Source: an uncultured delta proteobacterium
Lineage (GTDB): Bacteria > Desulfobacterota > RBG-13-43-22
Reading direction: 5' to 3'
NCBI GenBank assembly: GCA_963843145.1
Contig: CAWJJC010000005.1
Coordinates: forward strand, 1-64,000
DNA length: 64,000 bases
Part shown: positions 1-10,466 of the stretch, one piece after another
Layout of the letters: every line of letters begins with the position of its first letter
Position numbering within the stretch: position 1 is the first letter of the stretch
Program-made: the position numbers and the translations under genes
Notes under the pieces: generated by a model
What the model was told of the DNA's origin: nothing
Database searches by the model: none
The model's input: the letters and a program-made list of their open reading frames with translations, nothing else

Positions 1-158
1 CCGCACCATCTCACCAAGCAGTTTTCTTCATAAATTATTCTTTGTTTTTTTAAAAAAGATTTTATCGTTTGACCGTATCTGACAATCCCACCTGGTAAGC
101 TTGGCCTAAATAAAATTTATAAGAATTTTTTCAGAAAAAATTCTTAAAGGAGGGGCTT

Positions 159-946
159 ATGGAAGAATTACTAAATCAATACCTGGATAAGATCAAAATC
201 GGGGGGAAGCAGGTCTATAAGAACCTGACCCTGTTTCCCCTGCTCTCCGGACAGGCCGTTTCCCTGGATTATTTGACGCTCGATGAGGCCCTGAACGAAG
301 GCCTGGTGGAGGTGACCGAGGTCAGCGAGGGTGGGCATGTTCCGGATCTGAAAGTGGTCAACAAGTCCCCCGCATGATCCTGATCCTGGACGGGGAGGAA
401 CTGGTGGGGGCCAAGCAGAACCGAATAGTGAATACCACCATCCTGGTGGTCGCCCTTTCCACCCTGGTTATCCCGGTGAGTTGCGTGGAGCAGGGCCGCT
501 GGTCCTACCGAGAGCGTGGAAGAATACACCCGTCATTTCCGGCCCATCGAGGGCCAGGTGGGCGCGGTCTTCCTGATCAACGGCCGGGTGGTCGGGCTGG
601 ACAGCTTCGGCAGCCGGACACCCTGGCCAGGGTCTTCAGGAAACTGGTCCAGAGCTATGCCCTGGAAGCCATCGACTTCCTGGAACCGGACAAAGAAATC
701 AAGGTTTCCAGAACCGGCGCCTCCGACCTGATCCAGTCGGCCCGTCCTGCCTGTGGAATCAAGGACAGACGATACATAGACGAAGTGCTGCGCGAGTTCA
801 TTCATAAAATTTTTTCGAATCGAAAAAATTTTATCTGGATGGCCAGGTGGTCCACCTGTCGGTTTTTGACCGGCCTAAAAATGAGAGGAGGACCAAGGTT
901 TTCCCGGATGGGGAGTTTTTCGAACCGGAGGAGAAACCGGGGGTAG
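159..946 (+). pseudogene. DUF6569/ARPP-1 family protein, frameshifted and internally deleted
   Basis: AAGGAGGGG RBS. Motifs YLTLDEAL, GxVPDLKVVN, LILDGEELVGAKQNRIVNTTI, IPVSCVEQGRW, then EEYTRHF..QVGAVFLING and YLDGQVVHLSVF spread over three frames. The segment expected after WSY appears missing (~510). Confidence 0.75.
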
Positions 947-1283
947 ATTAGCCGCGGATAATACCAAGCCGGGAAAGGGAACCCAATTTACTTAACCAAG
1001 AAAGGTGAACCTGCCGATCACACTTCTAATATACTTAAGGAATGCCCAATTTGTAAGATTATACCTATCCCTATTCGTTCCAATGATTGACAGCCCTGAA
1101 GAATATGTGTTATTTCCGAGCTATCCGTTTAATTTTCCATTTATTTTTCCACCTAACCTTAGCTTTGGGAGGATGATTGAATCTAAAAGGCCCTGCCTCA
1201 TAATCAAGATGCAGAATTTTTTTTGTGGCGAATGCTACAACCTATCCTTCAAGTAGACGAAGCTAACTGGAATTACTCCCTTA

Positions 1284-3296
1284 ATGGAAACACTGCCTGA
1301 AACAGCTTGCGCCTCAGGGGCATCTTCCCGAGCCTGGTATTGGGACCTCATTGCTGAATTCCTGCTAACTGATCCCGATAAAGTTATCGGACGACTTGCA
1401 AGAAACACGGACTTCGCACTCATTCCGACACAGAAGGATGCTTGGCTGGAACAGATTAGCCTGCTGCAAGAATGCCTTGTTGGTTTAACGGGTTCGTTGT
1501 TTATGGAGTTCAACATCCCTCGTATGGGTCGACGGGTTGATGCGGTGCTATTGATCGGCCCTGTGGTGTTCGTGATCGAGTTCAAAGTCGGCGAAAGCGT
1601 GTTTGAGCGTGCAGCGGTGGAACAAGTTTGGGATTATGCTCTGGACCTGAAAAACTTCCACGAAGCCAGTCACTCTGTTTCAATTGTTCCAGTTCTGATC
1701 GCCACGGAAGCCACGGCATCGGAAACGTTAAAACTAATCGTCGACGAAGATCAGGTTTATCGTCCAATTCATGTACACCCCGCCGGTGCACGCGAAGCGA
1801 TCGACTTGGTTTTGCGAACCGTAATGGGCGAGGTGCTTGATGAGCAACGGTGGTCGCGCGCTCCATATCATCCTACCCCCACCATCGTGGAAGCCGCACG
1901 GGCTCTTTATTCTCAGCATTCGGTCGAGGCCATTGCACGTCACGATGCCGGAGCACAGAATCTACGAGTTACTTCGCGGCGAATTGAAGAACTGGTCGAC
2001 GAAGCAAAGGAAAAAGGGTGGAAACTTATCTGCTTTGTCACAGGAGTGCCTGGAGCGGGTAAGACACTCGTTGGATTAAACCTCGCTACTCGGCGACGAG
2101 AAAAAGATCAACCAACTCATGCCGTCTTTCTTTCCGGAAACGGTCCGCTCGTCGCCGTGCTCCGCGAAGCACTCACGCGTGACGAAGTCACCCGTAGGAA
2201 AAATGAAGGCGAAAACGTGCGGAAGGGGAAAGTTGCCGAAAGTGTCAAAGCATTCATCCAAAACATTCACCATTTCCGGGATGAAGCGTTAATCCATCCC
2301 GGCCCACCAATTGATCACGTTGTCATTTTTGACGAGGCGCAACGTGCTTGGAACTTGCGGCAAACCGCGAGTTTCATGCGTCGGAAAAAGAATCGCCCCG
2401 GGTTCTCTCAATCAGAGCCTGAGTTTCTGATTTCATACCTGGATCGCCATAGGGATTGGGCTGTGATCGTTTGCCTGGTCGGTGGCGGGCAAGAGATCAA
2501 CACGGGAGAATCCGGAATCGATGCTTGGCTTGATGCCGTGAACTCAAGATTTCCGCACTGGCACATGTACATTTCATCGCGACTCACCGATAGTGAATAT
2601 GCTGCGGGTAAGGCTCTGGAAGCCGTGCGCAAACGACAGAATACTAACTTTGACAACTGCCTGCATCTGGCCGTCTCCATGAGATCGTTCCGGGCTGAGA
2701 ACGTTTCGGCTTTTGTCAAGGCACTCCTCGATTGCGACAAACACCATGCACGAGAGGCTTTCCTCGGGTTTGCCGACCGGTACCCGATCGCCGTTACCCG
2801 TAACTTGAAACTAGCAAAGCAGTGGATTCGCAATCGTGCTAGAGGGACCGAGCGATTTGGATTGGTGGCTTCCTCGAAAGCCCAGCGCCTTAAACCGCAT
2901 GCAATAGATATCCGCGTGAACGTCGATCCAGTCCATTGGTTTCTCAATGGTAGGGGGGACACGCGTTCGAGCTATTATCTCGAAGACGCCGCTACGGAGT
3001 TTCAGGTGCAGGGTTTGGAGCTTGACTGGGCGTGTGTGACGTGGGATGGGGATCTGCGTTTCACCGATTCAGGGTGGAGTTTCCACGATTTCCGAGGCGA
3101 CCGGTGGTGCAATATCGTAAACTCAGACAACCAGCGTTTCCTCCGGAACTCATACCGAGTCCTACTCACTCGGGCACGGCAAGGAATGGTGATTTTTGTC
3201 CCACCCGGTGACTCGGGTGATCCGACGCGGTCACCCGAGATTTACGATTCAACCTTTGATTATCTTACCGATCTTGGCATCACTGCACTGCCCTGA
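1284..3296 (+). CDS. DUF2075 / Schlafen group 3-like SF1 DNA/RNA helicase with N-terminal PD-(D/E)xK-like nuclease region
   Basis: 670 aa. EFNIPRMGRRVDAVLL..VIEFK; Walker A GVPGAGKT; Walker B VVIFDEAQR; QVQGLELD; YRVLLTRAR. Confidence 0.85.
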   Translation: METLPETACASGASSRAWYWDLIAEFLLTDPDKVIGRLARNTDFALIPTQKDAWLEQISLLQECLVGLTGSLFMEFNIPRMGRRVDAVLLIGPVVFVIEFKVGESVFERAAVEQVWDYALDLKNFHEASHSVSIVPVLIATEATASETLKLIVDEDQVYRPIHVHPAGAREAIDLVLRTVMGEVLDEQRWSRAPYHPTPTIVEAARALYSQHSVEAIARHDAGAQNLRVTSRRIEELVDEAKEKGWKLICFVTGVPGAGKTLVGLNLATRRREKDQPTHAVFLSGNGPLVAVLREALTRDEVTRRKNEGENVRKGKVAESVKAFIQNIHHFRDEALIHPGPPIDHVVIFDEAQRAWNLRQTASFMRRKKNRPGFSQSEPEFLISYLDRHRDWAVIVCLVGGGQEINTGESGIDAWLDAVNSRFPHWHMYISSRLTDSEYAAGKALEAVRKRQNTNFDNCLHLAVSMRSFRAENVSAFVKALLDCDKHHAREAFLGFADRYPIAVTRNLKLAKQWIRNRARGTERFGLVASSKAQRLKPHAIDIRVNVDPVHWFLNGRGDTRSSYYLEDAATEFQVQGLELDWACVTWDGDLRFTDSGWSFHDFRGDRWCNIVNSDNQRFLRNSYRVLLTRARQGMVIFVPPGDSGDPTRSPEIYDSTFDYLTDLGITALP

Positions 3297-3412
3297 ACCA
3301 TGCTAACCGACTTTATTTCGATCGAGCGTGAACGTTTTGGAGACAAGGAATTCGGCCCCCCCTATTCCTTCCTCCTTGTGATTTACCTATATTATCACTG
3401 GCCCGGTTTAAA

Positions 3413-4135
3413 TTGGACAGATCTGCCTACCGACGCCTGGTCAAAAAGGTGGCCCCGGTGGTTAAGAATATGCCCCTTTTTAAGCTTCAGACCCTTGGCC
3501 GGGAACAGGTTGAGTTTTTATACTCGAATAAAATCATCAGTAAGGGAATAGAACTCCTCCCCGGTATTTGTTTCTGCCTTCGTCAATTCCATTTGATCAT
3601 CAAGGATCTGCTTCAAAGCGCCTGGGTTCGTTTTATTCATAAGATTCGGGCCAACCAGGACATCCTGGGGCAGGTTAAAGACTTGGCCGATTTCTTGTTC
3701 GGGTCCGAGAGGACCGTCTTGTCCGCCTTTAGTAGGATCTTGGTGGAACAACAAAACGGGGAATGCTTCTACTGCCAAAGACCGCTTAAAAACAGCCTTG
3801 CAATTGATCACTTTATCCCCTGGTCCCGTTACCCGGTTGATCTCGGTCATAATTTCGTTCTGGCCCATCAAACCTGCAATTCGGCCAAATCGGACAACCT
3901 CGCATCGATAAAACACTTCGGGAGATTGTGGGATCGTAATGAAAAATTTGGAGAGGAATTGGGAACCTTATTCGATCTGAGGAATTTGATCCATAATATC
4001 GATGCCACCAGAGAGATAGGACGCTGGGCTTATGGGATGGCCGAAAATAGCGGTGCCCAGGTCTGAGTAAGCCGGAATCAATATGAAAAACTGAGCCCTG
4101 ACTGGAAGACCATAACAGGAATAACCTCTCTTTAA
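3413..4135 (+). pseudogene. HNH endonuclease, 5'-truncated, with internal TGA (probably from TGG) at 4064-4066
   Basis: CFYC..IDHFIPWSRYP.DLGHNFVLAH..CNSAKSD. No RBS or ATG start. The frame continues past the TGA as VSRNQYEKLSPDW..* to TAA at 4135. Confidence 0.75.
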
Positions 4136-4148
4136 ATAAGTGGACAAC

Positions 4149-4935
4149 ATGGCCCGAATGCACCCCGAGGAAATCGAAGTCCTGGAAGACACCACGGTCG
4201 GTGAAAAAAAGGTCTTTCGGTTTCTCCATGACGCGGCCCGGCCCGACAAGGACTTCATCGCCTGGTATGAGCCGACCATAGGGAGTTCGGGTGCAGAACC
4301 GGATTTCATTCTTTATGGAAATTCCCTCGGGCTCCTGGTCCTGGAGATCAAGGACTGGGAGATAGACCAGATCGGGGAAGTCAACCCCCACACCTTCAAA
4401 TTCTGGACAGGCGACAAAGAAGAAACCCGGACCAACCCGGACCGGCAGGCCAAGGGATACGTAAACGAGCTCCTGGCTCTGCTTCGGGAACATCAGGAAT
4501 TCCACCAAAGCACCGGACCGCATGGAGGACAGTTGAAAATCCCGGTGGGCCGGATGGTGGTGTTCCCCCACATAAATCGCAAAGATTACCTGGACCGGGG
4601 ATTGAATCGGGTTATCACTCTAGATAGGACCCTGCTGGCCGAGGATCTGGAACCGGCCGGCGAACTCCGGGCCGATCCCTCCGGGGAGAAGTTCCAGGCC
4701 CGGATCGCCCAGGCCTTCCCTTTCCCCTTCAACGGCCTCTCAGGCAAAGAAATTCACCAGCTGATCGCCCTGATCTATCCCATCCTGAAGTTTGAGCCCC
4801 CGAAGCGCCTGGGTTCCTGCAATGAGCGGTTTCAACGGGAAGTGGAGGCCCTGGAAGAGGACCAGAGTCGGGCCGCCCTATCGCTTAAGGCTGGCCACCA
4901 GTTGCTTAAAGGGCCGCCGGGCAGCGGGAAGACCC
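4149..4935 (+). pseudogene. NERD nuclease / UvrD-like helicase, truncated immediately after Walker A
   Basis: GEKKVF..WYEP..EPDFILY..GLLVLEIKDW (NERD), TNPDRQA, then EDQ..HQLLKGPPGSGKTL. Homology stops at TAATAGGGGAC (4936). Confidence 0.8.
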
Positions 4936-4999
4936 TAATAGGGGACATAGTTTCTGAATATACTTGACAGGAGCCGGTTAACGCGTTACTGAGAGAATT

Positions 5000-5605
5000 A
5001 TGCCCAGACAACCGCGGCTGGATGCCCCCGGGACCCTGCATCACGTCATGGGCCGGGGGATCGAAACCAGCAAGACATTCAGAACCAGGAAAGACCGGGA
5101 GGACTTCATCGATCGGCTGGCGGAATTGTCCCGGTCGGGTAGATTGTCCGTATACGCCTGGGCATTGATGCCCAACCATTTTCACCTGCTGGTCCGAACC
5201 GAAAAAGAGCCTCTGGCCCGGAGCATGCGACGCCTGATGACCGGGTAAGCGATCAACTTCAACCTGCGGCACAAAAGACGGGGACACCTCTTTCAGAACC
5301 GCTATAAGTCGATCGTCTGCCAGGAAGATCTCTATCTGCTGGAACTGACCCGTTATATCCATTTGAATCCCCTCCGGGCCGGGCTGGTCCCGGACCTGGA
5401 GGCCTTAGGGCGTTATCCCTTTTCCGGCCATTCGGCCCTGACGGGCCAGGTGGAGCGGGACTGGCAGGATACCGGCACGATCCGAGGTTATTTTGCCGGG
5501 AGGCCCAAGGAGGCGATGCGGAGGTATAAAAACTTTGTAGCCGAGGGAGTCGGCCTGGGCCGGCGGCCGGAGCTGGTCGGCGGCGGATTGATCCGCGCCC
5601 TGGGC
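5000..5605 (+). mobile_element. REP-associated tyrosine transposase (RAYT-like, Y1 HUH), inactivated by in-frame TAA at 5246-5248 and 3'-truncated
   Basis: MPRQPRLDAPG.LHHVMGRG; YAWALMPNHFHLL (HUH); after the stop, in frame INFNLRHKRRGHLFQNRYKS..RYIHLNPLRAG..YPFSGH. Confidence 0.85.
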
Positions 5606-5754
5606 AACGACGCCGACACTAGCGGCGCGGTTTACGGCCAGATCGCCGGGGCCTGCTATGGGTACGAAGCCATTCCCCGAACTGGAAAACAAAAATCACC
5701 CATCGGGATCTTATCGAGTCCTATGCCGACCAGCTATACCGGTTGTTAGGATAA
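5600..5754 (+). pseudogene. C-terminal fragment of an ADP-ribosylglycohydrolase (DraG/ARH family)
   Basis: LGNDADTSGAVYGQIAGACYGYEAIP, then (frameshift) WKQKITHRDLIESYADQLY*, matching the family's GxDxDTxxAxxGxxAGAxYG..IP..W C-terminus. Confidence 0.75.
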
Positions 5755-5881
5755 CGGGAGATAACCCTGTCCTTGGTATCCCCGATTTTGTCTGATTATC
5801 CGGGGGCCGGACAAAAAGAGCCAGACAAAACAATTTAACCAGCCTTCAAAGAGCTGGGGCTACAAATAGAGGAGGATCACC

Positions 5882-6052
5882 ATGAAAAACGTAGAAATTA
5901 AAATCGAGGGTAACACCATGACGATTAAGGTAGACCTGGACAAGACCTTTGGCCCGAGCAAAAGTGGTAAAACCACTACTATCGCCAGCACCGAAGGCAA
6001 CCAGGCCGTGGCTCCCGGCGTTTTCGTCGGGCTCAACGTCTACAAGAAATAA
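5882..6052 (+). CDS. 56-aa hypothetical protein (absent from the ORF track)
   Basis: GAGGAGG RBS. MKNVEIKIEGNTMTIKVDLDKTFGPSKSGKTTTIASTEGNQAVAPGVFVGLNVYKK*. Confidence 0.8.
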   Translation: MKNVEIKIEGNTMTIKVDLDKTFGPSKSGKTTTIASTEGNQAVAPGVFVGLNVYKK

Positions 6053-6165
6053 AGAAAGAACAATTACATCGTAATAGGCGACAAGGATAAAATTTTATGG
6101 CCGTCCCTATTTTTAATTGTCAACTTTGGAAATTTAGCTTATAAAATAGCATCGTTTATTCTATT

Positions 6166-7329
6166 ATGGGACGCAAAATGGAATCAATACCACGATATTT
6201 CATACCTCCTGCTGATCACTTCTTCCTGCTGGGTCCGCGCGGCACGGGCAAGACCTGGTTGACCCAGAGGCTTTTTCCACAGGCGCTTCGGGTAGATCTG
6301 CTGGAGCCGGAAACCTTACGTTCGCTATCTGCGCGACCCGAGCGTCTGCGGGAGTTGATAGGGGCCAGGCCTGGAGTCCTGCAGGTGGTCATCGACGAAG
6401 TACAAAAGCTGCCGGAGTTGCTGGAAGTCGTCCATCTGCTGATCGAGGATAAGCAGGGGGTACAGTTTATATTCACTGGCTCAAGCGCCCGCAAGCTTCG
6501 GCGCGGCGGTGTGAATCTTTTAGGCGGACGGGCGATACAAAAGTCGTTGTATCCCTTCATGGCCGCCGAACTCGGCCCACAATTCAACCTGGAGGAGGCA
6601 TTGCGCCTCGGCATGCTGCCCATCGTGCGGGCGGGCAAGGTGCCCGAGGAAATCCTGCGCGCTTACAACGGCCTCTATTTGCGGGAAGAAGTGCAGATGG
6701 AAGGGTTGGTGCGCAATATCGGAAACTTTTCCCGCTTCCTCGAAGCCATCAGCTTTTCGCAGGCGGCCGTTCTCAACCTGGCCAATGTTGCCCGGGAGTG
6801 CCACGTAAACCGCAAGACGGTGGAGGGCTATCTGGAAATATTGGAGGATCTTTTGCTGGCTTTTCGAGTGCCGGTTTTCACCCGGCGGGCGCAGCGCGAA
6901 CTGGCGGCACATCCGAAGTTTTTCTTTTTTGATGCCGGCGTCTTCCGCGCCAACCGGCCGTCCGGTCCCCTGGATGCTCCATCGGAGATCGATGGCGCTG
7001 CGTTGGAGAGTCTCGTTGCCCAACATCTTCGGGCGTGGTGTGACTATTCGGGCGGCAATCACCAATTGCATTACTGGCAGACGCGGTCGAAAGTGGAGGT
7101 GGATTTCGTGGTCTATGGCGAGGGCGGCTTGTACGCGCTGGAAGTGAAGAACTCCGCCCAGGTGCGGCCGGAGGATCTGCGCGGACTTAAAAACTTCGGT
7201 GAAGACTTTCCGGAAAGCCGCCGCTGGCTGCTGTATCGTGGGAGGGAGCGACTTTTGCGTGACGGTATCCTGTGTGTGCCCTGCGAGGAGTTCCTGCTTC
7301 AACTGAAACCGAGCGAGTTCCCAGCATGA
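6166..7329 (+). CDS. AAA_14 / DUF4143 ATP-binding protein
   Basis: GPRGTGKT, VVIDEVQK, FTGSSAR, HPKFFFFDAG, C-terminal EVDFVV..ALEVK nuclease-like motif. Confidence 0.9.
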   Translation: MGRKMESIPRYFIPPADHFFLLGPRGTGKTWLTQRLFPQALRVDLLEPETLRSLSARPERLRELIGARPGVLQVVIDEVQKLPELLEVVHLLIEDKQGVQFIFTGSSARKLRRGGVNLLGGRAIQKSLYPFMAAELGPQFNLEEALRLGMLPIVRAGKVPEEILRAYNGLYLREEVQMEGLVRNIGNFSRFLEAISFSQAAVLNLANVARECHVNRKTVEGYLEILEDLLLAFRVPVFTRRAQRELAAHPKFFFFDAGVFRANRPSGPLDAPSEIDGAALESLVAQHLRAWCDYSGGNHQLHYWQTRSKVEVDFVVYGEGGLYALEVKNSAQVRPEDLRGLKNFGEDFPESRRWLLYRGRERLLRDGILCVPCEEFLLQLKPSEFPA

Positions 7330-7520
7330 CCATCCTCAAATCCATCATCCAATCCATTCGTAATGCGGCCTCCTACAACAAGCACGAACTGGCTGCACCA
7401 CGGGTCATCCTTTGGCCTGACGAGGAGCGGCTGTGGACGCAATGTATCGAGCCGTTGCGGGCGAGCTGTCCTGCCCTGTGGTCTCTTGGGGATTATTCTC
7501 CCGAGCAGGCGACCGGCCCG
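7326..7520 (+). pseudogene. pglZ: 5' stub of BREX-1 phosphatase PglZ type B
   Basis: ATGA overlap with the ATPase. MTILKSIIQSIRNAASYN..APRVILWPDEERLW..LGDYSPEQATGP resembles the PglZ-B N-terminus (recalled pattern AP..ILWPD..RQW..LGDY.PE.RTGPAIWLR). Cut at TAATAGGGGAC. Confidence 0.7.
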
Positions 7521-7559
7521 TAATAGGGGACCGTTTTTGCCTGGGACTTTCTACCCACC

Positions 7560-7679
7560 TCAATCCAACTTTTTGGATCGCGCCTCTACCCATTCGATGA
7601 GGTCGGCCACGCTGTAACATACTTTTCTCCCAACCCGGATACGGCCCTTCGGACCCTGGCCAAGACTGTCCAAATTCGC
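7560..7679 (-). pseudogene. C-terminal fragment of an excisionase/AlpA-like winged HTH protein
   Basis: Translates as ANLDSLGQGPKGRIRVGRKVCYSVADLIEWVEARSKKLD*. No start codon. Confidence 0.6.
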
Positions 7680-7711
7680 ACGGAAAAATTCGGTAATCCA
7701 CTTGCGGGGAG

Positions 7712-8081
7712 TTACCCCGTCACCTGTTTCTTGCCCAAACCAATTGTCCTTTTGACTGAGCGGGCGTTTGGGATCAGCTTAATTTCCAATTGACAACCGA
7801 CCGCCTGCGCATATTTTTTAAGGGTGGTAAGGGAAGGGGTATGCTTCCCGGTGGCTTCCAGGCGAGAAACGGCGCTTTTGGTGGTTCCCATTAAGTCCGC
7901 TACCTCTTCTTGAGTGAGGCCAATTCGGGAACGTGCGGTCAACATCTCGCGGGCCAGTCGGTACTCTTCTCCTAAATCCTCGTATGATTTCCGGAATCCT
8001 TTCCGTTTTAAGGCTTTTTTTAGAAAAGCCTCGGATCATGGGAAACCGGTTTATAAGGTAAATCGTCTTCCAAGGGTTCAT
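7712..8081 (-). pseudogene. XRE/HigA-like HTH antitoxin, frameshifted
   Basis: ARSRIGLTQEEVADLMGTTKSAVSRLE..PSLTTLKKYAQAVG. The N-terminal part YKPVSHD/FLKKALKRKGF is split by a frameshift near 8035. Confidence 0.7.
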
Positions 8082-8117
8082 CTCTCTTGATTTTCCCGGC
8101 TCGCTTTATGCTTTTCA

Positions 8118-8471
8118 CTATAAAAAAATTTTGTAGCTGATATTAAGCACCTTTCCAAGACGCTTTGCCATTTCTTTACCAATTGGGCGTTTTCCATTTT
8201 CCATTTCGCTGATATGTCGCTGAGGTATTCCGGTCATTCCCGAAAGCTGAATTTGCGTCAGCCCTTCCCGGTATCGCGCACCGGCAAGGGCTTTGCCGAT
8301 AAGCTGCCCTTCCGAATATTCGGGGTAGGCCTCGCGCCAAGGTGCAGAACCCAAGGTGTCCACAAATCCCAGAGGTTTCAAACTTTCAATGGCTTTTGCC
8401 ATGTTCACAATGGGACCCAAGAACCGCAGTTCAACGGATTCAATAGGGTGCTTTTTCGTGCGTTCCTGCAT
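8118..8471 (-). CDS. XRE-family HTH antitoxin (HigA-like)
   Basis: GARYREGLTQIQLSGMTGIPQRHISEMENGKRPIG. Overlaps the upstream toxin gene. Confidence 0.8.
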   Translation of the reverse strand: MQERTKKHPIESVELRFLGPIVNMAKAIESLKPLGFVDTLGSAPWREAYPEYSEGQLIGKALAGARYREGLTQIQLSGMTGIPQRHISEMENGKRPIGKEMAKRLGKVLNISYKIFL

Positions 8472-8718
8472 ATATCACCTCAATCAATTTGATTTCCTTA
8501 GCCATAACCTCCCATATAGCCACAAAGGTAGGACGGCCTTTCTTCAAGTGACAATGGTATCGGTTATCAGATAAGGCGCTAAAGTTTGGCCAATTTCCCC
8601 GAATAGGTCCGTTCACTTCCATATCCTTTTTCAGGGCGATGAGAAGATTTTGGACATTTTCAGGCAATTTCCTGACCCGTTTGCTCAGAGACCGTCTTTC
8701 TTTAACCGTCCATGTCAT
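8440..8718 (-). CDS. RelE/HigB-like toxin
   Basis: 92 aa, basic. WTV..KLPENVQ..GP...NWPNFSAL...YHCHLKKG..EVIYAGTHEKAPY. Toxin-first order. Confidence 0.7.
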   Translation of the reverse strand: MTWTVKERRSLSKRVRKLPENVQNLLIALKKDMEVNGPIRGNWPNFSALSDNRYHCHLKKGRPTFVAIWEVMAKEIKLIEVIYAGTHEKAPY

Positions 8719-8781
8719 AAATCAATCCTATACTAATTATTAGTATAATACAAGTCGTTTTTATTCTTGGTTTGTAATTGT

Positions 8782-9055
8782 CTATTTCTTCAGATTGACA
8801 ACCTTCCCGGACTGGTCCCTGGTGGTCAGGCTCGGCAACCGTTTGACGGCCTCTTGCATGGCCCCGGACCCCAGGTGCGCATAACGTGCGCTCATTTGAA
8901 CGGTGGAATGTCCCAACAATTTTCCGATTGTGAATATGCCCGTCCCGGCCTCTACCAGCCAAGAAGCGTAGGTATGGCGTAAGGAATGGACAACAACCTT
9001 TTGCCTCGGGTCGGTTATTCCCTTATTAAGGTTCAATTCCTTTACCGCGTCCCTT
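8782..9055 (-). pseudogene. C-terminal fragment of a tyrosine recombinase/integrase
   Basis: HSLRHTYASWL..GKLLGHST..MSARYAH (H-x-x-R, H and Y catalytic residues). N-terminal two thirds absent. Confidence 0.85.
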
Positions 9056-9227
9056 AAGTCGGTCGGCGTGTCGGCGTATTCCCGGCCGTCAGAGGGGTTT
9101 CCTTCCTGCCTGATTCGGCCTGGTTCCACCAAACCAAAAGGTCGGTCAGGTCTCCCCAACCGGCCTTAATAAGCCAGCGTTCAAGAATGCAATGCCCAAA
9201 TTTTTGAACGTTAAAATGAATTTTTCC

Positions 9228-9255
9228 TTGACACCCTTTTTTTTCTTGTTAATCT
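9228..9255 (+). promoter_or_regulatory. Putative sigma70 promoter of the lipoprotein gene
   Basis: TTGACA (9228-9233), 16 bp, extended -10 TGnTAATCT. Confidence 0.5.
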
Positions 9256-9290
9256 TACTCGGAGTATTACTATTTAGAGGAGATTATTCT

Positions 9291-9542
9291 ATGCAATCAA
9301 TTCGTCTTCTCGTGATTGTTTTCTTTGGAACGGTGATCCTTTGCGGTGCCCTCCTGCTGATTGGCTGCAACAGTTCCACCTCGGGAGGTAGCAGCACTCT
9401 TAAGTGCACATATCCCAATGTTCCGAGCTCAACTCAGTGCAATAATATTTCCCTCGGAAACTCTTGTCAAAGCCCTTTCACTTATGATTCAAATTCTAAA
9501 ACCTGCGATATTAATGACTGCTCTGCCTGCGCGCAATACTAA
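9291..9542 (+). CDS. Small Cys-rich lipoprotein
   Basis: GAGGAG RBS; hydrophobic signal with LLIG/C lipobox; Ser/Gly linker; six further Cys. Confidence 0.65.
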   Translation: MQSIRLLVIVFFGTVILCGALLLIGCNSSTSGGSSTLKCTYPNVPSSTQCNNISLGNSCQSPFTYDSNSKTCDINDCSACAQY

Positions 9543-9616
9543 GAAAAAGCCTCACCCTTACCCTTAGCAGCCAAAACCGGACCCGCCGGGTCAGATTAAC
9601 CCCTTACAATGGTTCC

Positions 9617-9644
9617 CGTGGCGCCTAGTGGCGCCACGTTCTAC
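9617..9644 (-). repeat. GTAG-type REP-like hairpin
   Basis: Minus strand GTAG-AA-CGTGGCGCC-ACTA-GGCGCCACG, a perfect 9-bp stem. Confidence 0.55.
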
Positions 9645-9962
9645 CCGGTGGCCTGAGCTCTCTACCTTCCCAATCATCTTCCTGTCAGACAGTGACCTGG
9701 AGAAGATGCTGGATTTCCTGAACGCTATGTCCCCCAGCGCCCTGAAGATCACCAGGGGCTATGTTAAGGGCGACCGGGCTGTCCTGTATGCTGAGGGAGT
9801 TCTTGCAGAAGAACGCCGCTCCTTTGAGCGGCCTTTAAGCTTCTAAGGCGGCGTTACGCCCGGTGTCCCGGACTTCCTTTGTGCGGCCGGAAGCCTGGAT
9901 CCGGCTTAGGCCGGTTCCCGTGGGAAAAATTTATGATTTTTTTTAATGGGGGAAAGAGAAGC

Positions 9963-10466
9963 TCAGGAAGTCTTTGGCGACAGGGCGACTTTCCGGCGGC
10001 CTGGGGGCCGGCGGTAATGTCGGTAATACTCGGAGAGGAAACGCTTGATATCCGGGCGCCCTTTGAGCGGCCGGTCCAATTTTTCAACGGATCGGATCAC
10101 GTCCCCGGCCGAGGCCCCTGTCGGAAACAGGTTGGCCAGCACCACCAGGCTCAACCCCAGGGTCTCATCGTCGGTGTAGAGGATAAAAGGGTATTGATCG
10201 CTGCCGCGAATAAACCGGGCAAACTTGACCACCCAGGGTTCATCAATTTGACAGGAAGCGAGATCGCAGGATTCCACCGGGATGGTGGTGTACTTCATGC
10301 CGGCCGCCTTCACCCGTCTGGCCAGTCCCTTGTCCCGCAGTTCCGAAGGCAGGATATCCAGCACCATCCGGTAGCCCTGGCCGGCCAGGACGGTCCATTC
10401 CTCCTCCTTGGGCCGACCGATGAGAATCGAATCTTTATCCAGTTTGATATGTTTCAGGAGATACAT
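9963..10466 (-). CDS. Hypothetical protein, possible DUF442/PTP-like fold lacking CX5R
   Basis: GRP..EEWTVLAGQGYRMVLDI..AAGMKYTTIPV; P-loop position reads ILYTDD. Downstream of lon. Confidence 0.5.
   Translation of the reverse strand: MYLLKHIKLDKDSILIGRPKEEEWTVLAGQGYRMVLDILPSELRDKGLARRVKAAGMKYTTIPVESCDLASCQIDEPWVVKFARFIRGSDQYPFILYTDDETLGLSLVVLANLFPTGASAGDVIRSVEKLDRPLKGRPDIKRFLSEYYRHYRRPPGRRKVALSPKTS

Follow-up and report, generated by a model that had tools for sequence, protein, structure and literature searches.

The 64-kb window, by which the whole stretch of DNA that was analysed is meant, raises the question of why the same 11 nt stand exactly where two defence genes are broken. The sequence-only reading took them for one inverted-repeat site family, tied to a RAYT-like transposase gene and marking gene-fragment junctions in an integron-like capture system. 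It is found here that the left end of a lineage-specific TIRtron terminates in these 11 nt, TAATAGGGGAC, and the island is, with a probability of about 0.65, a decaying mosaic derived from ordinary mobile elements, with no dedicated machine for cassette capture.

Occurrence of the Motif

A pattern scan of the window finds exact copies of TAATAGGGGAC at 4936-4946 and 7521-7531, both on the plus strand, and TAATAGGCGAC, with one mismatch, at 6072-6082. The three tips lie in direct orientation with spacings of 1,136 and 1,449 nt, and the first begins 64 nt before the ATG at 5000, confirming the close upstream position that had been claimed for it. Neither in the window nor in the genomes is the motif enriched. 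With up to one mismatch allowed, three occurrences are observed in the window versus 1.12 expected, a number reached by 10 of 100 shuffles, and copy counts of the exact 11-mer reveal no genome-wide enrichment over the reversed control (G001, 10 versus 9; G002, 3 versus 6; G003, 0 versus 5). Genome G000 has six exact copies and, with position 6 left free, 11 copies, only four of which are unattached to an element or to the IS110-family guest described below. The weight of the motif is its identity with a transposon terminus, not its frequency.

The Element That Carries the Motif

The features around the first tip are as follows.

4149..4935, plus strand: NERD-UvrD helicase 5' fragment of 262 codons (Pfam NERD), cut just past Walker A
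4936..4946, plus strand: 11-nt tip, the outermost nucleotides of the TIRtron left end; same-genus homology begins at 4936
4936..4999, plus strand: left end, comprising a ~30-nt terminal repeat that includes a TTGACA box, and the leader that extends to the ATG
5000..5604, plus strand: TIRYT (RAYT-like Y1 HUH) pseudogene (Pfam Y1_Tnp), with TAA in frame at 5246-5248
5599..5749, plus strand: ADP-ribosylglycohydrolase C-terminal tail fragment (Pfam ADP_ribosyl_GH, profile positions 260-286 of 287)
5882..6052, plus strand: 56-codon ORF, with a 95% identical copy in G001:C19

The TIRtron is a multi-copy, IS-like unit of about 1.1 kb encoding a RAYT-like Y1 HUH protein, and is made up of a terminal repeat some 30 nt long, a promoter box TTGACA and the gene for a TIRYT-type Y1 HUH tyrosine transposase of 330-345 aa. 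Window positions 4900-5590 are matched in 24 of 41 related genomes; among same-genus copies, 11 alignments begin at query position 37, which is window 4936, and none begins to the left of query position 26. TAATAGGGGAC followed by GTAGTTTCTGAAT is read in 5 of the 15 ends of the left-end table, the consensus is the tip followed by GTAGTTTCTGAATAAACTTGACAGG, and an A-rich stretch with GGGGACGT..CTTGACA..ATGCC is kept across genera. The 4936 end scores 52.3 bits with a 32-nt left-end matrix, the sole match of at least 12 bits in the window, while G000 (about 5.3 Mb) holds 15 matrix matches, only seven of them at 30 bits or more, and 11 Pfam matches to Y1_Tnp. The claimed tie between the motif and the RAYT-like gene is therefore borne out in that the motif forms the end of the mobile unit to which this gene belongs.

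Copies C12, C15a and C15b are units of about 1.08 kb whose gene is flanked by terminal inverted repeats of 28-29 bp; the right end of the window copy is lost. In the genus subfamily the inverted core is present at the right end but the inverted tip is missing, and the ends are thus not fully symmetrical. Tandem tips are present in G000, as TAATACGGGACG joined to TAAGCCGGGACGCAG.. in C4 and as ATAATAGAGGACG joined to TAATAGGGGAC in C12. By our count, CG stands before 11 of the 27 left ends, hinting at a short target of the IS200/IS605 kind. Intact TIRYT paralogues exist in G000 and belong to other subfamilies with different ends.

Both the window fragment and the intact L014 copy match Pfam Y1_Tnp, and the window translation contains HFH and YIHLNP, the Y---NP context of the catalytic tyrosine being given as the class 2 signature in the available literature text. 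The window gene is 89% identical to L013/L014 up to 5604, and position 5248 is C in metagenome contigs, giving TAC rather than TAA. The window copy is dead, having an in-frame TAA and having lost its 3' third.

As had been claimed, the NERD helicase is cut right after Walker A at 4936: three intact NERD-UvrD helicases (622-625 aa) lack the tip and read AAGACCCTGGTA.. where the window reads AAGACCCTAATAGGGGAC, and the C-terminal part of the helicase is not found in G000. These comparisons show that one TIRtron copy entered the helicase gene at 4936, just past Walker A, and was later inactivated by a TAC-to-TAA change; its 3' third and right end have also been deleted, along with the remaining helicase. 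The ADP-ribosylglycohydrolase tail is now fused in frame with the truncated TIRYT, and homologues of this fragment occur on contigs that also carry TIRtron copies (G001:C9, G002:C30 and G004:C171). The 56-codon ORF that follows has no Pfam, PADLOC or NCBIfam match.

Class Assignment

The TIRYT, or TIR-associated tyrosine transposase, of the TIRtron (Di Nocera 2013, PMC3733652) was placed in subclass 2.1 (Quentin 2018, PMC6006769), and the portions of these papers that are available describe TIR-flanked RAYT-like genes with a GGGGWSAS motif. The element shares with them a RAYT-like Y1 HUH gene coding for over 300 aa, flanking inverted repeats of about 30 bp in place of REP hairpins, a GGGG-core repeat at a fixed distance upstream of the gene and a low to moderate repeat copy number. 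The fit to GGGGWSAS itself is incomplete, at 7 of 8 positions for window GGGGACAT and at 6 of 8 for the genus consensus GGGGACGT. The motif is thus the end of an already described family, an outcome that the sequence-only reading had named as counting against it. Unlike the published elements, recent mobility is clear here from the 99.7% identity of C15a and C15b across 1,074 bp from a nested copy and a MITE-like deletion derivative in G001, and from many copies with 85-89% identity in sister genomes. Pfam (E <=0.01) gives Y1_Tnp only, without the Bac_DnaA_C/HTH tail of subclass 2.1, though the length of 330-345 aa indicates that an extension exists. Neither solitary 11-nt tips nor IS110 occupancy is mentioned in the available portions of PMC3733652 and PMC6006769.

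A REPtron is similar in having a class 2 Y1 HUH gene with Y---NP between inverted copies of a short repeat, and in the genus subfamily the tip is followed by GTAG. However, the repeat here is not a palindromic hairpin, about seven strong copies are present in 5.3 Mb instead of hundreds, and the gene is multi-copy. A classical RAYT/REPtron is ruled out by a score of 63.2 bits against the 80-bit cut-off of NCBIfam REP_Tyr_transpos (NF047646), by the 7 of 15 matrix matches that reach 30 bits and by an end repeat without a notable hairpin. IS200/IS605 and IS91/ISCR share HUH chemistry and possibly a short 5' target (CG) beside the left end, and by analogy their use of surrogate ends could explain adjacent deletions or capture. 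Membership of IS200/IS605, which has subterminal hairpins, is ruled out by the inverted-repeat ends and the absence of a tnpB-sized ORF from the 1.08-kb unit, and the TIRYT differs from IS91/ISCR in not being a Y2 enzyme. Contig C28 carries a separate, classical IS200-like gene (128.7 bits).

The Two Solitary Tips

The second and third tips border an ATPase-pglZ block.

6072..6082, plus strand: solitary tip TAATAGGCGAC, left over from a second left end
6083..6111, plus strand: AAGGATAAAATTTTATGGCCGTCCCTATT, right arm of the earlier two-armed reading, native upstream DNA of the ATPase block
6083..7520, plus strand: PDC-S01/DUF4143 AAA ATPase gene (6166-7329; Pfam AAA_14 and DUF4143, PADLOC PDC-S01) and the first 65 pglZ codons (7326-7520)
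7521..7531, plus strand: solitary tip TAATAGGGGAC, at the pglZ break
7532..8117, minus strand: unique segment with a 72-codon frame without family and an HTH_3 gene at 7712-7945 (Pfam)

A contig of metagenome run X1 shows that the tip at 6072 is the remnant of a left end: it reads as the window through the small ORF and tip to 6082 and then continues into GTAGTTTCTCAAGAAACTTAACAGGAGCCG, which is left-end interior. In the window, a block in common with G002 begins instead at 6083 and is 98% identical as far as position 7384, compared with 84-92% for its neighbours. A different left flank, ..ACGCGCTTTC(T/A)ACGAGATCG, precedes AAGGATAAAATTTTATGGCCGTCCCTATT in G002 and X1 contigs. Tip-like sequence lies before the ATPase block in both G000 and G002 at offsets differing by 18 nt; the G002 joint, TAAGGCGGGAC followed by GCGCTTTC.., is again one of tip with non-element DNA, and the native flank without the tip is seen in X1.

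The claimed cut of pglZ after about 65 codons is likewise confirmed. Homology of the PglZ fragment (PADLOC profile positions 3-67 of 774) with a 787-codon G017 frame stops at window 7520 (..GP), past which G017 continues AIWLRC, and metagenome locus L100, an ATPase gene followed by an uninterrupted pglZ, reads GGCCCG and then GCAGTGTGGCTGCG past the site; the tip is missing from intact pglZ. The identical 11-mer at two gene cuts thus rests on exact matches together with exact homology breaks. The sequence behind the 7521 tip is not left-end-like (shuffle p 0.08-0.96), and 7532..8117 has no match in G001, G002, G003 or G005. On a contig of run X2, pglZ runs to 7441 and is followed by G, TAATAGGGGAC and ATCCTATAG; the gene has been cut elsewhere by a tip with an IS110-family end. 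X1 further contains a joint linking 7364 to 4991. At both solitary tips unrelated DNA begins exactly after nucleotide 11, suggesting that DNA is broken or joined specifically there. Among the contig pieces listed from four metagenome runs, none bridges the joints of the tip with 6083 or of 7520, tip and 7532, and in the runs listed the share of sampled words recovered is at most 0.30.

An IS110-Family Guest at the Tip

In other TIRtron copies, an IS110-family element is inserted exactly between tip and interior. It occupies three copies in G000 (C15:60473, C15:65058 and C12:249882), L056 in G001 and L052:9572 in G002, and the C12 guest (L200:465-1742) matches Pfam DEDD_Tnp_IS110 and Transposase_20. 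The joint TAATAKGGGAC followed by ATCCTATA.. is common to the three G000 copies and G001, a similar joint occurs in G002 and X2, and AC is repeated at both joints. The available accounts of IS110/IS1111 elements (ISPpu9 in REPs; targeting guided by bridge or seek RNA) likewise place a DEDD-transposase IS at a fixed phosphodiester of another mobile repeat; here, by contrast, the target is a TIRtron end, at its tip. No copy of this guest lies in the window's first 10 kb, nor any remnant of it beside 6082 or 7531, and guide-like matches between the IS110 non-coding region and the target are only 8-mers, at about the level of chance.

Two more TIRtron copies in the same orientation would have inserted downstream of the 56-codon ORF (6072) and at pglZ codon 65/66 (7521), and both would have lost their interiors from exactly the tip/interior boundary, leaving an 11-nt scar. 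Breakage is probably favoured at this boundary because an element with an IS110-family RNA-guided recombinase inserts exactly there. If the guest were lost along with adjacent DNA, or if its target recombined, the tip would be left against foreign DNA; the step from an occupied end to such a joint is inferred. Solitary tips in other islands are no commoner than background, with eight unattached degenerate tips in 147,064 nt versus 3.0 per 100 kb genome-wide.

Competing Explanations

The TIRYT may itself make solitary tips: after a top-strand nick at the tip/interior boundary, it would employ a surrogate right site downstream and reseal the donor as tip against distal DNA. Such aberrant excision anchored at the left end, or one-ended transposition of the IS91/ISCR type, would give adjacent deletions and occasional capture of neighbouring genes. 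Three independent joints of tip with non-element DNA at or near the same phosphodiester (6082/6083, 7531/7532 and that of G002), the tandem tips of C4 and C12, the CG before left ends and the intact G000 paralogues are consistent with it. We nevertheless regard it as unlikely: the resident gene is dead, the intact paralogues have different ends, and the accessible parts of PMC3733652 and PMC6006769 contain no TIRYT biochemistry. The tip also belongs to the element and not to the flanking target, and normal cleavage should therefore fall 5' of it.

The integron-like array, in which the tip is a recombination site bounding pieces captured by the RAYT clade or another recombinase, would read tip, truncated TIRYT with ADP-ribosylglycohydrolase fragment and small ORF, tip, ATPase with pglZ fragment, tip. 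Each of the three direct tips is at a homology break, the 98% identity of the ATPase block makes it look recently exchanged, tip-like sequence precedes it in two genomes, and related genomes have true arrays of small toxin-antitoxin and defence cassettes. As in integrons, a variable locus carries small genes of these kinds that all face one way. Yet those arrays are bounded by 240-bp NERD 5' fragments, not tips, and about six island junctions have no tip (3399/3400, 5604, ~6052, 7384 in G002, 8117/8118 and 9095). The site family accordingly marks the two defence-gene cuts without marking junctions in general, being found at 3 of about 9 mapped. The ATPase cassette could not be linked to tips either, with no tip and no left end at 80 metagenome ATPase loci (380,004 nt). 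Integron membership is ruled out by the lack of IntI, attI and attC and by heterogeneous junction sequences: positions 1-10000 have no Rfam match at E <=0.1, and the sole Phage_integrase match is a 125-aa C-terminal tyrosine recombinase fragment (8782-9159, Pfam). With the resident transposase gene dead as well, a capture system of this kind is quite improbable.

The two-armed sites fail too, being unrelated to the tip or products of junctions, and a single inverted-repeat family is not supported.

3339..3366, plus strand: hairpin (fold -13.7 kcal/mol, z -1.98) that follows the PDC-S41 (Schlafen-type) helicase gene, not of the tip family

This site is a conserved hairpin within a 92% identical syntenic block shared with G002, the break lying at 3399/3400, and its best fold is formed by GGAG..AAGGAAU and AUUCCUU.CUCC instead of by the arms proposed earlier; hairpins at the sites examined are modest (z -1.7 to -2.0). 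At 6072-6111 the right arm is DNA of the ATPase block and occurs without the left arm in G002 and X1 contigs. Only a few letters are in common with the tip at 5752-5787 and 1066-1075, the latter within a repeat of about 180 bp with copies on C20 and C21.

Chance matching at breaks of unrelated, illegitimate origin is a hardly credible account of the 6072 and 7521 tips: hundreds of repeated 11-mers are expected per 64-kb window (our estimate), the pattern is unenriched and the sequence behind each tip is not left-end-like, but X1 runs from the 6072 tip into left-end interior, X2 has pglZ cut by a tip at another position, both copies sit exactly at homology breaks, and the chance that an unattached exact copy would fall so close to the real end at 4936, within 3 kb, is by our estimate about 0.005.

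Implications

It is doubtful that the 11-nt tip serves as an active joining site, at which the TIRYT or the RNA-guided IS110 recombinase would cut the phosphodiester behind GGGGAC and religate it to foreign DNA. If true, TIRtron ends would be mobile breakpoints at which defence genes are deleted, brought side by side and now and then captured as tip-segment-tip arrays and, together with the NERD 5' fragment arrays in sister genomes, would represent a recombination-driven building of defence islands without integrases.

Exact cuts in two defence genes

The source genome amounts to 5.35 Mb in 32 contigs, the first 64 kb of contig C5 being the window. Over its first 9.2 kb the window is a mosaic of defence-type genes, some whole and some in pieces, as assigned with Pfam and PADLOC:

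1284-3296: Schlafen-type helicase, complete, PADLOC PDC-S41
3413-4066: HNH protein
4149-4935: NERD-UvrD helicase, first 262 codons
5000-5604: RAYT-like Y1_Tnp gene, in-frame TAA at 5246-5248
5599-5749: ADP-ribosylglycohydrolase, last ~30 residues, fused to the Y1_Tnp gene
5882-6052: 56-codon ORF
6166-7329: AAA_14/DUF4143 ATPase, PDC-S01
7326-7520: pglZ, first 65 codons
7712-9159, minus strand: HTH genes and a 125-aa integrase tail

No known RNA family was matched by Rfam in 1-10000, and the idea that the frame to the right of 7531 is excisionase-like was dropped for want of a Pfam match.

Positions 4936 and 7521 carry the 11-nt motif TAATAGGGGAC and position 6072 carries TAATAGGCGAC, in each case on the plus strand. 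The sequence-only reading had reported an exact repeat at two gene breaks, and this is borne out at 4936 and 7521, as both cuts are exact against intact relatives. In place of the window's GGGAAGACCCTAATAGGGGAC, three intact helicases (622-625 aa) have GGCAAGACCCTGGTA..; a full-length PglZ relative continues from ..KIGP into AIWLRC where the window ends in ..ATGP and a stop. In L100, a metagenome locus, an unbroken pglZ comes after the same ATPase, with GGCCCG running directly into GCAGTGTGGCTGCG, and the motif is thus absent from both intact genes.

Motif frequency alone is no signal: the window has three matches versus 1.12 expected, and three were also reached in 10 of 100 shuffles. The exact 11-mer occurs six times in the source genome and 10, 3 and 0 times in three sister genomes, compared to 9, 6 and 5 in the reversed control. 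A genome-wide repeat family was rejected because the exact 11-mer stays at background and strong full-length left ends (motif, interior and leader up to the ATG) number only ~7 in the source genome.

The motif as the terminus of a TIRtron

The source genome contains 11 Y1_Tnp matches; four of them are paralogues of the window gene, 330-336 aa long, and have upstream DNA that can be aligned to window 4936-4999. Pairwise BLAST of the paralogue loci delimits units of ~1.08 kb with terminal inverted repeats of 28-29 bp, two of which (C15a and C15b) share 99.7% identity across 1,074 bp. A DNA search with window 4900-5590 matched 24 of 41 related genomes and returned many copies at 83-89% identity within the same genus; in 11 match rows the homology begins at query position 37 (window 4936), and no row extends left of position 26. 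The consensus of 15 left ends is TAATAGGGGAC GTAGTTTCTGAATAAACTTGACAGG, then a ~25-nt leader and ATGCCC, with the exact 11-mer in 5 of the 15 left ends read. In other genera the plan is an A-rich stretch, GGGGACGT.., CTTGACA, ~35 nt and ATGCC, and it recurs in one genome placed in the same phylum only. A 32-nt matrix built from 19 left ends found only 4936 in the whole window and gave 15 matches of at least 14 bits in the source genome, seven of these at least 30 bits. A 22-nt matrix at 16 bits gave 12 real matches versus 11 in the reversed genome, and resemblances noted by eye, such as those upstream of the repeat units in the related genome G018, cannot be scored with it.

The motif, hereafter the tip, forms the end of a mobile TIRtron, and so turned out to be what the sequence-only reading had named as the counter-case to its own model, the end of a described IS family. 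A TIRYT is a RAYT-like gene flanked by terminal inverted repeats, many with GGGGWSAS (Di Nocera 2013, PMC3733652), and within the Y1 HUH superfamily most TIRYTs belong to subclass 2.1 (Quentin 2018, PMC6006769); the window element is the same entity. The sections of this literature that deal with TIRtrons catalogue them as low-copy, possibly inactive RAYT relatives and describe no cleavage site, target or activity. An intact TIRYT copy scores 63.2 bits on NCBIfam REP_Tyr_transpos, below the 80-bit cut-off, and is therefore not a classical RAYT.

A clean empty site of a full copy did not emerge at either of two places: the DNA flanking the C12 copy is itself repetitive, and the copy on C30 of the related genome G002 has a left flank matching contig C28 of the source genome up to ..ttttccgt, with no continuation there into the right flank. 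By the author's count, with loci not all independent, CG directly precedes 11 of 27 left ends, several of these preceded by ACG or a partial tip (for instance TAATACG or GGGACG). Either a short insertion target or a true terminus 1-2 nt further out is suggested by this. Miniature and nested derivatives are seen in the related genome G001 on C9 (L035 16373-16640, 18390-18540) and C19 (L032 6752-6849). One miniature of ~260 bp consists of a left end, the first 134 nt, an internal 88 nt and the right-end-like GAATTATTAGGAAA; in the nested case a full copy is inserted in codon ~10 of a second copy.

Junctions of the island

The sequence-only reading had further proposed two-armed sites between modules and an integron-like capture of cassettes by this RAYT clade or another recombinase. 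The site at 3339-3366 lies inside a block of 92% identity to G002 that ends at 3399, and its fold pairs different arms from the ones suggested. The right arm at 6099-6111 belongs to the ATPase block, and in G002 and metagenome run X1 it occurs without the tip. No support was found for 5752-5787 or 1066-1075 as sites, the latter lying within a ~180-bp repeat. Breaks were placed by synteny with relatives, and tips stand at 3 of ~9 mapped breaks.

Mapped breaks and presence of the tip
3399/3400: no
4935/4936: yes
5604: no
~6052-6071: no
6082/6083: yes
7384 (in G002): no
7520/7521 and 7531/7532: yes
8117/8118: no
~9095: no

Speaking against integron-like capture are these junctions without a tip, a transposase that is dead, the absence of integron parts and the loss of the two-armed sites. 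Across 80 metagenomic loci of the ATPase gene (380,004 nt), zero tips and zero left ends were found.

Several further features of the island were observed. The ARPP-1 family gene (159-946) is broken into two overlapping frames, 159-377 and 374-946, and pieces of the 24-147 and 843-939 region recur on C4 (59353-59635) and C17 (4245-5186) beside solo left-end copies and another NERD fragment, indicating that contigs C4 and C17 end in sister islands. At 1038-1223 lies a repeat of ~165-185 bp that has three more copies in the source genome (two on C21, one on C20) at 83-87% identity, is present in G002 where the syntenic block begins, and has no Rfam match. The ADP-ribosylglycohydrolase tail recurs at 74-82% identity ~1.3-3.6 kb from TIRtron copies or fragments (G001:C9, G002:C30, G004:C171). 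The ATPase block 6083-7384 has 98% identity to G002, compared to 84-92% for neighbouring syntenic blocks, and many metagenome contigs carry homologues of 84-99% protein identity between differing flanks; from these comparisons the ATPase looks like a recently and widely exchanged gene.

In relatives, about 10 or more diverged copies of ~240 bp with 75-92% identity reproduce the initial ~60-117 codons of the NERD-UvrD helicase gene (G018:C31, L092/L093; G019:C32, L094; G012:C77, L096; also G001:C9 and, in the source genome, C17:5323-5535). The fragments lie in one orientation upstream of a single full-length gene, with three more copies downstream in G018, and are spaced by 1-3 kb encoding Fic, NTP_transf_8, ParE, HTH, PIN, ATPase_2/DUF234, DUF433 with DUF5615, and an IS110. 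C-terminal fragments do not repeat in these arrays, which look like repeated Campbell-type cassette integration through the 5' part of the gene.

The solitary tips and an IS110-family guest

One TIRtron copy cut the NERD-UvrD helicase and subsequently decayed; no C-terminal part of the helicase is present in the source genome, and the in-frame TAA reads TAC in three of four metagenome runs (X1, X5, X9), X2 having no depth there. At 6072 and 7521 the tip stands alone. Local alignment with six left ends and 2,000 shuffles revealed no hidden left end in 7532-7581 (p 0.08-0.96), and the lone low value, 0.004 in 6083-6132, reflects common ATPase-flank sequence rather than left-end similarity.

Contigs of the four runs were compared with 4400-8000, of whose words no listed run covers more than 0.30. 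One X1 contig matches the window up to 6082, small ORF and tip included, and then reads GTAGTTTCTCAAGAAACTTAACAGGAGCCG, a normal left-end interior, and two others join 6083 from ..ACGCGCTTTCAACGAGATCG, a flank near-identical in G002. An X2 contig follows pglZ to 7441, then G TAATAGGGGAC ATCCTATAG, and an X1 joint links 7364 to 4991. Both solitary tips are thereby tied to the TIRtron by independent data: relatives have the small ORF followed by a whole left end, and tips or left ends cut the 5' region of pglZ at other positions. A left end is the source of the 6072 tip, and probably of the 7521 tip as well. A third case in G002, TAAGGCGGGAC joined to GCGCTTTCTACGAGATCG AAGG.., lies 18 nt upstream of the window's joint. 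Among the contig pieces listed for the four runs (273 further pieces lie outside that list), none bridges the window's own tip junctions.

With tip position 6 left free, the source genome has 11 copies, of which three run on as left ends, one is in tandem with another left end, three run on as ATCCTATAAC... and four are unattached (7521 and three others). ATCCTATAAC.. is the end of a ~1.75-kb element encoding a 426-aa protein with DEDD_Tnp_IS110 and Transposase_20, and this guest sits exactly after the 11-nt tip of TIRtron ends. Set side by side, occupied and free ends show the guest to be inserted between GGGAC and GTTGG, where AC stands at either joint, and the same joint is seen in G001, G002 and X2.

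Copies of the IS110-family guest
Source genome: C12:248100-249882; C15:60473-62250; C15:63114-65061
Relatives: G001 L056; G002 L052:9572

The C15b TIRtron copy carries the guest in both ends, in inverted orientation. IS110/IS1111 elements choose targets by guide RNA and some sit in REPs, according to the portions of the literature covering them; here the address is instead the TIRtron tip. Guide-like complementarity between the guest's non-coding region and the target was limited to 7-9-mers, near chance.

In the window, the interiors of the 6072 and 7521 insertions are replaced from nucleotide 12 on, and would both have been lost in events anchored at the tip/interior bond. This bond may be special because the IS110 guest recombines there, and loss by this route is given a probability of roughly 0.45. 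Unspecific causes take up the remaining odds once the TIRYT itself, an unlikely agent of the loss, is also counted. The breakpoint after the tip is reproducible.

Implications

What was found is a known type of element, represented by new and well-defined members, within a defence island in decay; the exact short repeat at two gene breaks is a transposon terminus, not a new recombination system. As the lineage offers precise ends, recent duplicates, nested and miniature derivatives and empty sites, the TIRtron family becomes experimentally approachable, and an IS110-family element using the TIRtron tip as its address is a natural target-and-guide pair to seek. The NERD-UvrD helicase and the BREX gene pglZ, both inactivated by the TIRtron, are an example of small ISs eroding defence islands.
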